Assembly: GCA_016874655.1 (NCBI GenBank)
Contig: VGTO01000002.1
Span: 1 to 55,329 of the forward strand
Length of the DNA: 55,329 bases
Direction: 5' to 3'
Source: Bacillota bacterium
GTDB lineage: Bacteria > Bacillota > Dethiobacteria > DTU022
Part shown: positions 28,889 to 34,436 of the stretch, in pieces
Layout of the letters: every line of letters begins with the position of its first letter
Position numbering within the stretch: the first letter of the stretch is position 1
The notes under the pieces: generated by a model
What the model saw: the letters and a program-made list of their open reading frames with translations, nothing else
What the model was told of the DNA's origin: nothing
Database searches by the model: none
Translations under genes and position numbers: made by a program

Positions 28889-30235
28889 TTACTGAATTAG
28901 TTTTAACGGCAGCCCACCTTCGGCCAAAGCGAGATAATGTTGCCCGGTGAGGTCGAAGCCACCCCGGTCAAACGAGATCCCCGGCACCAGGATACAATTA
29001 TAGCCCTGAATATTGGCCACCCCGGCCAGGGCCGCCCGGTAATCATTAACGGTCAACAAACCTGCACAGTTGATCGTTCCACCGAACCAGGTAGAGGGCA
29101 CCGTTAGTAGATCAAGTTTATTAATGGCCCCCACCCGCAAAGAAACCTGCCAGCGAACTAGGGCGGGGGCCGATAACAGCATCAGGTTTTTGCCAGCGGG
29201 ATTAATGCTCGTTTTAACCCGGTCAACCTGATCCGGGTCTAAGTCGTACGAAACTGCAATTCCCGGGCTGGTTTGGGCTGCTTTAGTCATTTTAAAATCG
29301 GAATATTGTCCTGCGCGCCAAATTATTAAAGCAGGATCACTGCTTTCGGTTAGCAACCTAAATGCTTCAACCCTGCTGAAAGGCTGCGTGCCATTAATCT
29401 TAAAAATCAAGTCTCCATTGCGCAGACCGGCCTTATCCGCCGGGCTGTCTTTGAACACTCCGGCTAGCACAGGATTTAAATCGTTGATCAGAGGCGGCTC
29501 AAGCAGCAGCGGAGCAGAAAGCTGATGCTGCAGCTCATAAACCAAATGGTAAAGCCGGCTGATCTGGTCTTCACCGGGAATTAGCTCGGGATCGGTCAGC
29601 CTCGTAAAGCCGGGCAGCAGCAGACGAACCGATTTAGCACCGCTCTGATCCAGGAATATTTGGGTCTGCTTTAGATCCTCAAATCCCACTAAGTGGGGCA
29701 TGGCTACTACACTGCCCTGAAAATTGATTTTTCTCACTGCGAGCAACTCGATCAGTTGCCGGATCTGACCGGGGTTGGGATCGCCCATCAATATCCTTCT
29801 GCCTTTGGAGGATATACTGTTAAGGGAAATGATCAGTTCAAGCGGCTGTAGCATTGAAAACTCTTCGATGATCTGAGGGGTAAGCAGGGATCCGTTCGTA
29901 GTAACCTGAATCATAGTCTCAGGGAAAAGGGCCCGCAGAGCTTTTAACAAATCCATGAACCGGGGATGAGTCAGTGGCTCACCCTCGCGCAGGCGGGTAG
30001 CCGACTCGCCAATAATTATTTTCTGCTGCGAATCGAGGTAGGCAGAAAGCTCACCTAAGAGTATTAGAGAGAGCGGACCAAAGCTATAAGCGTTTGTGCC
30101 TGGAGGGTTAAAGCGGTGGCTGCAAAAGCAGCAGGATAAATTACAGCGGCCGGTGAGCGGTAAAACGTTGTGATCGCGCACCGCTTCAACCAACAGCCGC
30201 TGTAGTAGTTCAGAGCCTTCTTTTAACTCTGTCAA
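28889..30235 (-). CDS. Radical-SAM-like Fe-S protein with PDZ and DUF512-type C-terminal domains
   Basis: CNLSCCFC (CX3CX2C) near the N-terminus, a PDZ-like segment (VFKDSPADKAGLRNGDLIFKINGT), and a C-terminal region resembling DUF512 (GGTINCAGLLT). Confidence 0.7.
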   Translation of the reverse strand: MTELKEGSELLQRLLVEAVRDHNVLPLTGRCNLSCCFCSHRFNPPGTNAYSFGPLSLILLGELSAYLDSQQKIIIGESATRLREGEPLTHPRFMDLLKALRALFPETMIQVTTNGSLLTPQIIEEFSMLQPLELIISLNSISSKGRRILMGDPNPGQIRQLIELLAVRKINFQGSVVAMPHLVGFEDLKQTQIFLDQSGAKSVRLLLPGFTRLTDPELIPGEDQISRLYHLVYELQHQLSAPLLLEPPLINDLNPVLAGVFKDSPADKAGLRNGDLIFKINGTQPFSRVEAFRLLTESSDPALIIWRAGQYSDFKMTKAAQTSPGIAVSYDLDPDQVDRVKTSINPAGKNLMLLSAPALVRWQVSLRVGAINKLDLLTVPSTWFGGTINCAGLLTVNDYRAALAGVANIQGYNCILVPGISFDRGGFDLTGQHYLALAEGGLPLKLIQ

Positions 30236-30249
30236 ACTGTTCCCTCCGT

Positions 30250-32727
30250 TTAGCGGACCACAATATTAACCAATCGGCCGGGAACAGCAATAACCTTGAT
30301 TATCATTTTGCCTGCTAACAGCTCGCCAACCCTTTCACTGCTCTTGGCAAATTGAGCGAGTTCTTCTTCAGTACATTCAGCGGGAACAGTCACCCGACCA
30401 CGCACCTTGCCATTAATCTGGACTACTATTTCCACTTCATCCAATATTAGTTTTTGCGGATCAAACTCCGGCCAGGTCTGCCTGTGGACTGATCCCTTTT
30501 GCTCCAGCAGATGCCAGGATTCCTCGGCCAGATGCGGCGCGAAAGGAGCTATCAGCAGGATGATTTTTTGCAGGGCATCCTTTAAGTGAGATTGGTTTTG
30601 CTCTTCCTTGGCCGCTACCTGGCGGTACGCGTAAGCAGCGTTAACCAGCTCCATGATCGCGCTGATCGCCGTATTGAAATTATAACGTTCCTGGATATCT
30701 AAGGTAACCTTTTTTATTGCCGCATGAACACTGCGCTCCAGGGTTTCTTCATTTGTGCTGTAGATAGAACCGCCCTGGCCGGTTGCAAACTGCTCGCGGC
30801 AATCAATGACCAGACGCCAGATTCGCCTTAAGAAACGATGGCAGCCTTCCACTCCCTGATCGCTCCAGTCCAAATCTTTTTCAGGCGGGGCAGCGAAGAG
30901 GATAAAAAGCCTGCCGGTATCGGCACCGTATTTTTCAACAATTTCATCGGGAGTGACTACGTTACCCTTGGATTTAGACATCTTGGCTCCATCCTTGTAA
31001 ACCATTCCCTGCGCCAGCAGACGGCTGAAAGGCTCATCAGCTTTGCTCAAACCGGCATCATAAAGAACCTTGGTGAAAAAGCGGGCATAAAGCAAGTGTA
31101 ATACCGCATGCTCAATGCCCCCGATATACTGATCAACGGGCATCCAGTAATCAACCGCTTCTTTTTCAAAAGGAGCATCCTGACACTGAGGGCTGGTATA
31201 GCGCATAAAGTACCAGGAAGAACAGATGAAAGTATCCATGGTATCGGTTTCCCGGTGAGCTTCCCTGCCACAGGTGGGACATTTAACCCGGGTAAAGCTC
31301 TCATAGTGGGCCAGGCCGGAAACCCGGTTGCCGGAAAGCTCGACTTCAAGAGGCAGTTCAACCGGTAAATCCTCTTCAGGCACGGGGACAATACCGCAGC
31401 CGTCACAGTAAATGATCGGGATCGGCGCACCCCAGTAACGCTGGCGCGAAATAAGCCAGTCACGCAGCCGGTAGGTGACCTGAAAGCGGCCCTGACCCTG
31501 CTGCTCTAAGTAGGCGGTCACTTTTTCCATCCCCGCATGATTGGGCAGGTCATTAAACTCACCGGAATTAACCATTTCCCCGGCACCGGTGTAGGCTTCA
31601 TTCATCGTATCACCGTTTAACACTTCACCTGCAGGCTGAATAACCACTTTAACCGGCAGGTTATACTTGCGCGCAAAATCAAAATCTCTCTGGTCGTGGG
31701 CCGGCACACCCATAACTGCTCCTGTTCCATAGGCCATCAAGACATAATTACCAATTAGGATTGGCACCTCTTCACCGTTTACCGGATTAATCACGTGGCG
31801 TCCGGTAAAAAGGCCGATTTTCGGAGCCTCGTCGGCGGTACGCTCAATTTCGCTGACGCGGCGCATCTGAGAGACAAAATCCAGCACCTCTTTTTCCTGT
31901 TCTGTGCCTTCAACCAGTTTTTTGACCAGGGGATGCTCGGGAGCCAGCACCATTGATGTAACCCCGAAAAGAGTATCCGGGCGGGTAGTGAAGGTGCGAA
32001 TCTCCTCACCGGGGAATTCTTTAAGCTGGAAAACTATTTCTGCCCCTTCGCTGCGCCCGATCCAATTATGCTGCATTACCTTTACCCGTTCCGGCCAGTC
32101 TTCCAGCTTGTTCAAATCGTTTAAGAGGCGCTCGGCATATTCAGTGATCCGCAAAAACCACTGCTCTAAGTCTCTCGTTTCAACGACCGATGAACAGCGC
32201 CAGCAGAGGCCCTTTTCAACTTGTTCATTGGCCAGAACTGTATTACAACTTTCACACCAGTTAACGCTGGCTTTCTTTTTATAGGCCAGCCCTCTCTTGT
32301 ACATCATCAAAAACAGCCATTGCGACCAGCGATAGTAATCCGGGGCCGAGGTATTAACCTCTCTGCGCCAGTCATAACTGACGCCAAGTCGGTTCTGTTG
32401 CTTTTTCATGTGTTTAATATTTTCAACTGTCCAGATAGCCGGGTTAACCCGGTGCTCAATGGCGGCATTTTCAGCCGGCAGGCCAAAAGCATCCCAACCC
32501 ATCGGATGGATTACATTGTAGCCGCGCATTCTTAAAAAACGGGCCAAAACGTCTCCGATTGAGTAGACCCGCATGTGACCCATATGCAATTTGCCGGAGG
32601 GATAGGGAAACATCTCCAGCACATAATATTTTGTTTGCTGATGATCAATTTCCGAGCGGTAAAAATCTTCTTTTTCCCACTGTAGTTGCCAGCGTTCTTC
32701 AATTTCTGCCGGGTTGTAGTTAACCAA
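30250..32727 (-). CDS. leuS: Leucyl-tRNA synthetase
   Basis: HMGH (HIGH motif), KMSKS, and a CP1 editing domain. I prefer the TTG start at 32727 (M-VNYNPAEIEERWQ, GGAGG 10 nt upstream). The tracked start at 32784 and the ATG at 32754 both overlap the T-box terminator and its U-tract. Confidence 0.9.
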   Translation of the reverse strand: MVNYNPAEIEERWQLQWEKEDFYRSEIDHQQTKYYVLEMFPYPSGKLHMGHMRVYSIGDVLARFLRMRGYNVIHPMGWDAFGLPAENAAIEHRVNPAIWTVENIKHMKKQQNRLGVSYDWRREVNTSAPDYYRWSQWLFLMMYKRGLAYKKKASVNWCESCNTVLANEQVEKGLCWRCSSVVETRDLEQWFLRITEYAERLLNDLNKLEDWPERVKVMQHNWIGRSEGAEIVFQLKEFPGEEIRTFTTRPDTLFGVTSMVLAPEHPLVKKLVEGTEQEKEVLDFVSQMRRVSEIERTADEAPKIGLFTGRHVINPVNGEEVPILIGNYVLMAYGTGAVMGVPAHDQRDFDFARKYNLPVKVVIQPAGEVLNGDTMNEAYTGAGEMVNSGEFNDLPNHAGMEKVTAYLEQQGQGRFQVTYRLRDWLISRQRYWGAPIPIIYCDGCGIVPVPEEDLPVELPLEVELSGNRVSGLAHYESFTRVKCPTCGREAHRETDTMDTFICSSWYFMRYTSPQCQDAPFEKEAVDYWMPVDQYIGGIEHAVLHLLYARFFTKVLYDAGLSKADEPFSRLLAQGMVYKDGAKMSKSKGNVVTPDEIVEKYGADTGRLFILFAAPPEKDLDWSDQGVEGCHRFLRRIWRLVIDCREQFATGQGGSIYSTNEETLERSVHAAIKKVTLDIQERYNFNTAISAIMELVNAAYAYRQVAAKEEQNQSHLKDALQKIILLIAPFAPHLAEESWHLLEQKGSVHRQTWPEFDPQKLILDEVEIVVQINGKVRGRVTVPAECTEEELAQFAKSSERVGELLAGKMIIKVIAVPGRLVNIVVR

Positions 32728-32756
32728 ATTATTTAGGCCTCCATCCTGAAGCATAA

Positions 32757-33088
32757 AAAGAAAATAAAAAATCCGCCCGGTCAAGGGACGGATTTATACC
32801 CGCGGTACCACCCTTATTGGTCACACTTATGGTGGAGCTGGCGGGAGTCGAACCCGCGACCTCTTCCATGCCAAGGAAGCGCGCTCCCACTGCGCCACAG
32901 CCCCCCGATCAGTTGCCCTCTTTCAACCGTTAACGCCGGTTCTACGACAGCGGCTATTCTTTTCACCGCCGTTTCTCCGGGATGAGTTCAGCAGTTCTGC
33001 CTGCCGGTTTTCACCACTCCCCGGCTCTCTGAAAAACATACCTGCCTACTGCTTCCCATCATTAAAAACCTTTTGGCACCCCGAGTAC
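32757..33088 (-). promoter_or_regulatory. T-box riboswitch leader of leuS (specifier CUC = Leu), interrupted by a tRNA gene
   Basis: Minus strand Stem I: GAUGGGAAGCAGUAGG, AGAGAG, distal loop AGUGGUGAAAA, and specifier GAA-CUC-A (CUC at 32986-32984). T-box sequence AAGGGUGGUACCGCGG lies at 32818-32801. The antiterminator has helices AGGG/CCCU and GCGG/CCGU around the bulge UGGUACC. The terminator is AAAUCCGUCC-N7-GGGCGGAUUU plus a U-tract (32795-32757). Confidence 0.8.
32830..32904 (-). tRNA. tRNA-Ala (anticodon GGC), CCA encoded
   Basis: Minus strand: GGGGCTG TG GCGC AGTGGGA GCGC G CTTCC TTGGCAT GGAAG AGGTC GCGGG TTCGACT CCCGC CAGCTCC A CCA. All four stems pair, with the G3:U70 alanine identity pair, A73 and a canonical T-loop. 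Confidence 0.9.
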
Positions 33089-33095
33089 ACCTAAC

Positions 33096-33124
33096 ATTAT
33101 ATGCAGGGTCAAATACCTTGTCAA
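33096..33124 (-). promoter_or_regulatory. Consensus sigmaA promoter of the T-box/tRNA/leuS transcription unit
   Basis: Minus strand: TTGACA (33124-33119), 17 nt, TATAAT (33101-33096). Confidence 0.65.
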
Positions 33125-33147
33125 TAGCATTAATGACTTTCGCCGAT

Positions 33148-34044
33148 TCAGGAGGTCACTTCAACCTGATATGATTCGGCACTTTGCATGTCGATGATTA
33201 ACAGTTTATTGCCGGCAAGAACGCCTTCAAGACCAGCCAGGATCTTTACCGCCTCACATGCCTGCCAGGATGCCAGCATGGCCGGAGTTGCAGCTGGATT
33301 GCCCAGCTGAACCTCAACCCCTTTGGTTATTCCGCTCTCAGATAGAGGCCCATAGATGGCTTCCAATAAAGGCTGGTCAGGGCGGATTACCGCAACCTGG
33401 CCTAAAAAACCGGCGATCGCACCATGAATTAAAATTAACCCCAGCTGACCACACACTTTTTCCAGGGCAAAACGGGAAGGCAGGTTATCAAGGCAGTCAA
33501 TAACCAGGTCACAGCCCTGCAGCAGCGCGGGTAGATTAGCGGCATCGCCAATCAGATGGTGAGCCTCAACTTCTGTTGCTGAATTGACAGCAGCAATCCG
33601 ACCGGCAGCAGTCTCGGCCTTTGAACAACCCAGTGTTGCTTCGCTGGAGAATAGTTGCCGGTTTAAATTGCTGTCTGTAAAGCTGTCGCCATCTACGACT
33701 ACCAGCTTACCAATGCCCATGCGGGCCAGCAGTTCGAGGACAAAGCCGCCAAGTCCCCCGGCTCCGACCACGCCGACAGCGCTCTTTAGTAACTTGCCTT
33801 GGCCTTCAAGGCCAAGAGTGCCAATACTGCGTTGGTAACGATCGGGAATGATCCCCTGATTAAGAGCAGCAAGCTCAATCTCGCGATGGGTCATGTTGTG
33901 TTCTTCAGCAAGCTGACTGGTCCAGGTCAGGGTCAGGTAGCGGTAATCATTGCCGGCAGGGTCTTTCCCGGTAACTGCCGCCTCTTCTAATTCGCTGGTT
34001 AATAATCTCAGTTCGCTCATCGTCTTACCTCTTTTATCAAACAT
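33148..34044 (-). CDS. ThiF/MoeB/HesA-family E1-like adenylyltransferase with N-terminal extension
   Basis: RYQRSIGTLGLEGQGKL plus VGAGGLGG (nucleotide-binding loop) and DGDSFTDSNLNRQ. The ATG overlaps the rsfS TAA (TAATG). The start may instead be the internal MSELRLL. Confidence 0.75.
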   Translation of the reverse strand: MFDKRGKTMSELRLLTSELEEAAVTGKDPAGNDYRYLTLTWTSQLAEEHNMTHREIELAALNQGIIPDRYQRSIGTLGLEGQGKLLKSAVGVVGAGGLGGFVLELLARMGIGKLVVVDGDSFTDSNLNRQLFSSEATLGCSKAETAAGRIAAVNSATEVEAHHLIGDAANLPALLQGCDLVIDCLDNLPSRFALEKVCGQLGLILIHGAIAGFLGQVAVIRPDQPLLEAIYGPLSESGITKGVEVQLGNPAATPAMLASWQACEAVKILAGLEGVLAGNKLLIIDMQSAESYQVEVTS

Positions 34045-34436
34045 TACTTGGTTGAAAGCGGCAGGCCTTCGCCACCCCCGTCAAGAAAAAGCTGCGGCGC
34101 TTCATACCACAGCCGTTCAAGATCATAGAAAGCCCTTGCCTCAGGCTGAAATACGTGAATCACCAGAAAACCGTAATCCAATACAACCCACCAGGCCTCT
34201 TTTAGCCCCTCAACTCTCTGGGGGTAAAAATCTTGTTGCTTTAAGCTTTCAAGCAGGTGATCACAAATCGCTTTAACCTGGATTGCTGTATTGCCGGTAC
34301 AGATCAGAAAGTAATCGGCAATAATCGATACCCTGCCCACTTCCATCAATTTCAACTCATGCCCCTTTTTTTCTGAAGCCAGTTGCGCGGCATTAAGAGC
34401 CAGCTCTCTTGAGCCGGTGGCCGGTTCCTGTGCCAA
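34044..34436 (-). CDS. rsfS: Ribosome silencing factor RsfS (iojap)
   Basis: DYFLICTGNTAIQVKAICDHL...WVVLDYGFLVIHVFQPEARAFYDLERLW. Confidence 0.85.
   Translation of the reverse strand: MAQEPATGSRELALNAAQLASEKKGHELKLMEVGRVSIIADYFLICTGNTAIQVKAICDHLLESLKQQDFYPQRVEGLKEAWWVVLDYGFLVIHVFQPEARAFYDLERLWYEAPQLFLDGGGEGLPLSTK

Follow-up and report, generated by a model that had tools for sequence, protein, structure and literature searches.

A Leu T-box leader of leuS with a tRNA-Ala(GGC) gene in the apex of Stem III

T-box riboswitches are a model system for RNA that senses transfer RNA (tRNA), and their Stem III has recently been found to belong to the domain sensing aminoacylation. The present analysis concerns one such leader, that of leuS, on the minus strand of a stretch of 55,329 nucleotides (nt) from a Bacillota bacterium (contig VGTO01000002.1, taken whole and called the window below), in which a gene for tRNA-Ala(GGC) lies between the two halves of the riboswitch. 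With the canonical T-box (Rfam family RF00230; the leuS leader of Bacillus subtilis) this leader shares a Stem I with a CUC specifier, Stem II, Stem IIA/B, a Stem III flanked by RRRxG and AA, an antiterminator with a UGGN bulge set against a terminator, and an aminoacyl-tRNA synthetase gene downstream. It differs from the B. subtilis leuS leader in that the apex of Stem III is a 75-nt tRNA gene for another amino acid, and from canonical T-boxes in that the leader would also be a tRNA precursor. The discriminator signature of T-boxes has been given as 5'-RRRxG-Stem III-AA-3', with the termini of Stem III alone mattering for function and its length and sequence being free (PMC11404447, PMC7583486). 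The initial annotation knew of no described T-box with an embedded tRNA gene, and no description of a tRNA inside a T-box was found in the full-text literature, which does not cover the older genomic T-box surveys, so that an earlier mention is possible.

Among the described departures from the canonical form, lineage-specific insertions such as stem Sa and the L I-III elements of the met leader lie in or next to the discriminator domain without loss of T-box function (PMC9177973; PMC7913692; PMC7583486), and a 2020 review names odd insertions across T-box domains as an unsolved question (PMC7583486). The insert in the window resembles these in being an extra folded RNA, conserved and set into an intact core; unlike stem Sa and L I-III, which are plain hairpins of one genus, it bears the hallmarks of a tRNA gene and is shared by several phyla. 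Cleavage has been described for the B. subtilis thrS leader and, by RNase III, for the Staphylococcus aureus met leader, the new 5' end setting the stability of the mRNA (PMC7913692). A cut after the regulatory decision, leaving a new mRNA 5' end, is proposed here as well; unlike those of thrS and met, the cuts in the window leader would come from RNase P and a 3' activity, and would free a tRNA. GOLLD RNA can embed a tRNA in certain of its sequences only, the Mycolicibacterium case being a tRNA-Phe (PMC12990946). Like GOLLD, the window has a tRNA gene nested in a large structured non-coding RNA, but GOLLD is not a riboswitch. The tRNA-Ile and tRNA-Ala genes of ribosomal RNA (rRNA) spacers are bracketed by processing stems, and the Escherichia coli thrU-tyrU-glyT-thrT-tufB operon co-transcribes tRNAs. 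As for these, release by RNase P and 3' processing is proposed for the tRNA in the window, with leader and trailer pairing around it; in contrast to these, the RNA around it would be a ligand-sensing regulatory domain whose function depends on the tRNA's flanks.

In the window itself the covariance model RF00230 gives one full-length match (model positions 1-219; 109.3 bits against the Rfam cut-off of 93, E=2.6e-23), the tRNA falling in an insertion of 85 nt at the Stem III loop. That a single match might span both halves had been suggested beforehand, and it does so in 19 relatives too. Its alignment recovers the Stem I motifs, namely the GA/K-turn UGAUGGGAAGCAGUA, the AGAGAG bulge, the distal loop GUGGUGAAAA and the specifier GAA-CUC-A, and relatives likewise show a GA/K-turn, AG bulge, distal loop and specifier loop followed by a purine. 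The flanks of Stem III are present as AAGAG...AA, the antiterminator as AGGG-UGGUACC-GCGGG...CCGU-CCCU, and a 10 base pair (bp) terminator with a U-run overlaps the 3' half of the latter. The Leu specifier agrees with the regulated gene downstream, leuS, whose product of 825 amino acids shares 91% identity with metagenomic LeuS proteins carrying tRNA-synt_1 domains. The Leu T-box of the initial annotation, with its Stem I hallmarks, specifier, antiterminator and terminator, is upheld by the alignment and the terminator scan, and the other facts that it states also hold. ARAGORN places a sole tRNA in the 55-kb window, tRNA-Ala(GGC), which scores 68.9 bits in Rfam against a cut-off of 29. Direct reading agrees with the cloverleaf first described, in the G3:U70 pair, A73, the encoded CCA and the 14 nt between that CCA and AAGGGUGG. 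All the defining features that can be tested in sequence are present, and on these grounds the element is a member of the T-box family and the embedded element a member of the tRNA-Ala family.

The same arrangement recurs widely. One genome per species, from 185,579 species, was scanned for GGTTCRANTCC (the tRNA T-arm) followed after 15-45 nt by GGTGGTACCGCG (the T-box sequence), a pattern that favours neither alanine nor leucine. At least 120 loci resulted; counts out of 120, 113, 105, 100 and 95 concern the matches listed, as do the carriers named below. The pattern needed the exact T-arm motif and a UGGU bulge and the matches listed number at least 120, so the prevalence is a lower bound, and there may be combinations other than tRNA-Ala(GGC) with a Leu T-box. 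ARAGORN found a tRNA at 112/120 loci, in every case tRNA-Ala(GGC), and tblastn found LeuS downstream in at least 107/120, most of the loci without a visible leuS being cut by the edge of the contig or of the stored 8-kb block. The sole evaluable false positive, L026 from Oribacterium, is an ordinary Phe T-box with the T-arm motif by chance in its Stem III. By the labels of the deposited records, the carriers are Bacillota (Syntrophomonadaceae, Peptococcaceae, Thermacetogeniaceae, Desulfofundulus, Desulfitispora, Thermosyntropha), Chloroflexota (Chloroflexia, Anaerolineae, Caldilineae, Thermomicrobiales, Ktedonobacter, Limnocylindria), Armatimonadota, Coprothermobacterota and Caldisericota; the labels Methylocystaceae, Bacteroidales and Solirubrobacterales, on metagenome-assembled genomes, are probably binning errors. 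Two cultured isolates carry the nesting, Desulfofundulus thermosubterraneus DSM 16057 and Desulfitispora alkaliphila DSM 22410, and in Thermosyntropha lipolytica DSM 11003 only the 3' end of the tRNA, the T-box and leuS are seen, the locus being cut at a block edge. Relatives picked solely through their LeuS protein (67-76% identity to that of the window) have the nesting in the same place in 4/4 cases, which brings the total to more than 115 independent loci or assemblies. This conservation of position across phyla speaks against the recent insertion that had been considered at the outset; as judged from it, the nesting is ancient and conserved.

Among these relatives a full-length RF00230 match crosses the tRNA in 9/18 diverse loci at the curated cut-off, and in nine further tRNA-carrying loci at E<=1.7e-10, four of these being above the cut-off. 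Many of the T-boxes fall below it because the large tRNA insertion costs score; those of L008, L028, L054, L067 and L076 are full length yet reach 59.9-75.7 bits against 93 (E<=1.7e-10). The CUC specifier is present in 6/6 relative alignments displayed and is found by a strict regular expression in 69/105 loci, and most relatives keep the F-box motif, CGTTA or CGATA, 24-47 nt upstream of the tRNA. In a separate scan of metagenome LeuS loci, 68 of the 72 that could be evaluated came from lineages without any T-box, and the T-box-regulated loci, a tiny sample of four, comprised three with tRNA and T-box and one with a T-box only. The last, L122 (2079-2337, plus strand), is the only tRNA-free leuS T-box in this unbiased sample; it has a CUC specifier and a plain Stem III hairpin of about 46 nt, and scores 113.7 bits.

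The position of the tRNA relative to Stem III is given by its flanks. Comparison of these across all loci reveals a recurring frame, 5'-RRRNG and a helix strand, a linker, the tRNA, a second linker, a helix strand and AA, then 4-5 nt and GGUGGUACC, in which RRRNG takes the form GAGYG, AAGYG or RAGAG. The helix was tested with anchors blind to pairing: on the 5' side the RAGNG that comes first past the F-box, and on the 3' side the AA that precedes GGUGG by 4-5 nt. All six positions are paired in 47/95 loci and at least five in 68/95, as against 4% and 23% when the 3' strands are swapped between loci. A formal count over 71 distinct relatives, with 500 shuffles, finds standard pairs in 76.8% of cells (56.7% shuffled), 115 cells altered on both sides (34.5 shuffled) and a covariation score of 0.597 (0.241 shuffled), none of the 500 shuffles reaching the observed value in any of the three measures, and no slid register exceeds a score of 0.231. 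Compensatory changes occur at all six pairs, the second, for example, being GC in 26 cases and AU in 25. In relatives the tRNA is enclosed by a covarying helix with RRRNG and AA at its flanks, which indicates that the tRNA sits in the apex of a retained Stem III. The initial annotation had suggested that the cloverleaf may structurally replace Stem III, and on this point it has to be amended. The top of the helix is separated from the tRNA by unpaired linkers, 0-46 nt long 5' of the tRNA and 0-19 nt long 3' of it, some loci have extra hairpins in them, and in several the 5' strand of Stem III is paired up to tRNA position -1; the variation of the linkers argues against a precise architectural role of the cloverleaf. 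In the clade of the window the helix is weak, with 4/6 positions paired (GG/CC, a C.A/A.G mismatch, AC/GU), and a weak form of it is still seen in the minimum-free-energy fold of the window.

Other approaches to the structure were set aside. Minimum-free-energy folds of the whole leader and of the tRNA alone gave a rod-like tRNA with unremarkable z-scores (-2.85, -1.08 and -0.59); single-sequence thermodynamics being uninformative here, covariance models and covariation were relied on instead. RNAalifold, run on a MAFFT alignment of the segments from RRRNG to the T-box, recovered the cloverleaf, but misalignment of the variable flanks made it miss the outer helix, for which reason the motif-anchored, gap-free test was used. 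An unanchored search of the 5' flank for a 6-nt complement was dropped as too permissive, its control giving at least 5/6 pairs in 84%.

The embedded tRNA shows the marks of selection for tRNA function. Its anticodon is GGC in 112/112 cases, as well as in L201-L204, L124, L126 and L135; G3:U70 is present in 26/26 aligned relatives, which also show compensatory changes in all four cloverleaf stems; A73 is found in 112/113 loci. The T-loop is canonical, and Rfam scores of 62-72 bits are typical of real genes. An anticodon and a G3:U70 pair that never vary point to a working tRNA gene. CCA is encoded in 90/113 loci, and 22, mainly of Anaerolineae type and Limnocylindria type, have A73 but no CCA. 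The complementarity between the UGGU bulge and the ACCA end, to which the initial annotation drew attention, exists in the window; its relevance for the embedded tRNA is unlikely, since with 22/113 loci lacking CCA a general role needing ACCA:UGGU pairing in cis does not hold, and such pairing is ruled out as a conserved feature. The UGGU bulge is what any Leu T-box needs. Sub-threshold Rfam matches to transfer-messenger RNA (tmRNA; 41-45 bits against 47) also fall on the tRNA-Ala of L201-L204, L008 and L054; a tmRNA gene at this place was rejected, tmRNA having an alanine-tRNA-like domain and the related models belonging to one Rfam clan.

Stem I, the tRNA, the T-box and leuS look, from their promoters and terminators, like one transcription unit. 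The leader promoter of the initial annotation is a perfect match to consensus (Table 1), and scanning of the window found nothing resembling a promoter or a terminator between Stem I and the tRNA; in 32500-33400 the T-box terminator (32795..32769, minus strand), with its U-run, is the single terminator-like site. In 38/100 loci, promoters matching 11-12/12 lie 204-240 nt upstream of the start of the tRNA, upstream of Stem I; shuffled sequence gives matches of about 7-8/12. A scan for internal promoters in 100 loci, covering the 160 nt before the tRNA and its first 5 nt, gave only four strong matches, all in short T-box variants, about 150 nt upstream of the tRNA and ahead of Stem I, and thus no strong promoter between Stem I and the tRNA, as the initial annotation had it for the window. 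The short variants (L054 and L100 of Coprothermobacterota, L106 of Caldisericota, and L067) have a 12/12 promoter just upstream of Stem I; their T-boxes are about 237 nt long including the nested tRNA-Ala(GGC), apparently without Stem II and with a Stem III base of 4-5 bp, that of L054 starting about 116 nt upstream of the tRNA.

A second tRNA, tRNA-Ala(CGC), is found directly upstream of Stem I in loci of Anaerolineae and Caldilineae (L028, L027, L043, L052, L055, L064, L066, L072, L080, L096 and L117). At L028 (5288-5666, minus strand) it ends 19 nt before the start of the T-box and has a promoter-like site upstream. To judge by this order, leuS would there lie at the distal, attenuated end of an alanine-tRNA operon consisting of promoter, tRNA-Ala(CGC), T-box with tRNA-Ala(GGC), and leuS.

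The reading that we consider probable is that of a functional Leu T-box of leuS whose permissive Stem III apex hosts a co-transcribed tRNA-Ala(GGC) gene as a passenger. The anatomy of the element, the conservation of its nesting and the covarying helix around the tRNA are properties of the sequences themselves; the steps that follow, including folding, tRNA-Leu sensing and processing, are put forward by analogy with what is established for T-boxes and for tRNA processing. A single strong promoter ahead of Stem I would produce Stems I-III, the tRNA, the antiterminator/terminator region and leuS as a single RNA, the leader being transcribed constitutively. During transcription the tRNA would fold as an independent domain and the base of Stem III close around it, positioning the purines of RRRNG and AA where the discriminator needs them. 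Uncharged tRNA-Leu(GAG) would bind the specifier and the UGGU bulge and stabilise the antiterminator, which would set termination or read-through. After that decision RNase P and 3' processing would free mature tRNA-Ala from terminated and read-through transcripts alike, so that the abundant leader would double as a tRNA gene, and the read-through leuS mRNA would keep a processed 5' end near the antiterminator/terminator hairpin, much like the processed thrS leader of B. subtilis (PMC7913692). Its requirement in decoding, and the cost of altering either tRNA or T-box, would explain why the passenger is kept; linkers as variable as those observed fit what is expected of a passenger.

Several points weigh against this reading. 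Within 110 nt after the T-box no U-run is evident in 49/113 loci (about 43%), mostly from high-GC Chloroflexota, and these loci may regulate translation instead of termination, or use U-poor terminators. The encoded CCA and the structured 3' trailer make 3' maturation non-trivial. The weakness of the helix in the window's clade means that the acceptor stem may there take part of the role of Stem III. From sequence alone we infer co-transcription, processing and T-box function. Finally, a pure passenger would be expected to be lost more often, and its retention across phyla could mean a regulatory contribution.

That the nested tRNA takes part in the regulation itself and is not a mere passenger is accordingly the alternative to be taken most seriously, although we regard it as rather unlikely. 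The roughly 75-110 extra nt and their fast folding could lengthen the time in which uncharged tRNA-Leu docks before the terminator is made; cleavage by RNase P and at the 3' side could be needed to make the leuS mRNA stable or translatable, or to destroy it; or the cloverleaf could touch the bound tRNA-Leu. As the initial annotation proposed, cutting by RNase P might also impose a kinetic window or remodel the 5' end of the mRNA. Such roles would fit the occurrence of the nesting in at least five phyla, among the matches listed always with the same tRNA species and T-box class, and in three of the four T-box-regulated leuS loci of the unbiased metagenome sample as well as all four Dethiobacteria-like relatives. 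They would also fit the precedents of B. subtilis thrS and S. aureus met, in which leader processing sets mRNA stability (PMC7913692), and the suggestion in reviews that lineage-specific insertions may add contacts to the ligand tRNA (PMC7583486). Against them stand the geometry between tRNA and Stem III base, which is not conserved (linkers of 0-46 and 0-19 nt, extra hairpins in some loci), the loci that lack CCA (22/113), and L122, whose T-box scores 113.7 bits with a plain long Stem III and no tRNA; decoding, not regulation, accounts for the invariance of the anticodon and the identity pair. To our knowledge the B. subtilis leuS T-box has no nested tRNA either. For the narrower proposals, that control of leuS includes tRNA excision as an integral step or that the cloverleaf contacts bound tRNA-Leu, our belief is correspondingly low. 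Were they true, the RNase P and 3' cuts would sever Stems I and II from the expression platform and set the 5' end of the leuS mRNA and its stability or translatability, leuS expression would be tied to tRNA-processing capacity or to the supply of tRNA-Ala, and the leader would be a riboswitch with an output dependent on the maturation of a second tRNA encoded within it.

The remaining alternatives fare worse. Two independent units, with the tRNA having its own promoter or the leader ending earlier, and the halves of the T-box being a relic that does not regulate leuS, would be highly improbable: weak or non-sigma-70 promoters may escape sequence scans, and many Chloroflexota loci have no strong consensus promoter anywhere in the promoter scan, but in the window nothing like a promoter or terminator separates Stem I from the tRNA, the four strong internal matches in 100 loci lie upstream of Stem I in the short variants, the interval is wholly filled by conserved T-box elements, and full-length matches, a specifier for Leu, covariation in Stem III and an antiterminator/terminator pair would not be retained across phyla in a relic. 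Nor would we give more than a very slight chance to the cloverleaf being a pseudo-tRNA, never released or translated with, and only an elaborate Stem III. The pairing of the Stem III 5' strand up to position -1 of the tRNA in several loci could hinder RNase P and would suit this idea; a purely structural module, however, would not keep decoding and identity elements, as is done here with the invariant GGC anticodon among the matches listed (112/112), G3:U70, A73, a canonical T-loop and Rfam scores in the range of real genes. An assembly chimera or chance resemblance has a probability close to nil, both covariance models being far above their cut-offs in the window; recurrence of the nesting in more than 115 independently assembled loci, including cultured isolates, rules out assembly error and chance.

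The features of the window that carry the preferred reading, that of a T-box with a passenger tRNA, are collected in Table 1.

Table 1. Features of the leuS leader and its nested tRNA in the window (all on the minus strand)
Feature	Position	Strand	Basis
Sigma-70-type promoter TTGACA-17-TATAAT, leader promoter	33096..33124	-	12/12 consensus matches
Complete T-box leader (RF00230 model 1-219), tRNA as insertion	32781..33071	-	Rfam covariance model
Stem I: GA/K-turn, AGAGAG bulge, distal loop GUGGUGAAAA, specifier loop	32974..33065	-	covariance-model alignment
Specifier codon CUC (Leu)	32984..32986	-	model alignment GAA-CUC-A
Stem II (32948-32971); Stem IIA/B with F-box CGUUA (32931-32946)	32931..32971	-	model alignment
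Purine string AAGAG (RRRNG; 32918-32922); Stem III 5' strand GGCAAC (32912-32917)	32912..32922	-	model register
tRNA-Ala(GGC) gene in Stem III apex; G3:U70, A73, CCA	32830..32904	-	ARAGORN, Rfam
Stem III 3' strand GUGACC (32819-32824); conserved AA (32817-32818)	32817..32824	-	anchored covariation test
Antiterminator: A1 AGGG/CCCU, 7-nt bulge UGGUACC (32804-32810), helix A2	32784..32814	-	model alignment
Competing intrinsic terminator: 10-bp hairpin, then U-tract	32759..32795	-	terminator scan, minimum-free-energy fold
leuS; TTG start at 32727, 10 nt after GGAGG ribosome-binding site	30250..32727	-	open reading frame list

The surroundings of the leader are partly shared with other genomes. 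The gene order rsfS (PF02410), thiF-family (PF00899), leader, leuS and radical-SAM/PDZ is common to the window, where the neighbours are 33148-34436 and 28889-30235 (both minus strand), and the Dethiobacteria-like contigs L201-L204. Elsewhere a further gene lies between T-box and leuS: one for a GNAT acetyltransferase in L008, L013, L025 and L074 (Chloroflexia, Limnocylindria), one for a class IV (IlvE-like) aminotransferase in L016, L038 and L063, and one for an AMP-binding, acyl-CoA-synthetase-like enzyme in L030 and L077 (Desulfofundulus and another Bacillota genome), which puts leuS about 1.8 kb downstream in the latter two.

About half of these T-boxes fall below the Rfam cut-off, and pipelines would call the tRNA and often miss the T-box, so that the regulation of leuS would be under-annotated in these phyla. 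For the T-box family, the nesting shows the extent to which the apex of Stem III tolerates insertion. The leader of a constitutive attenuator would be reusable as a tRNA gene, its prematurely terminated transcripts not being waste, and the locus would provide a natural system in which RNase P processing competes with a co-transcriptional riboswitch decision on the same RNA, with both the timing and the fate of the leader open to experiment.

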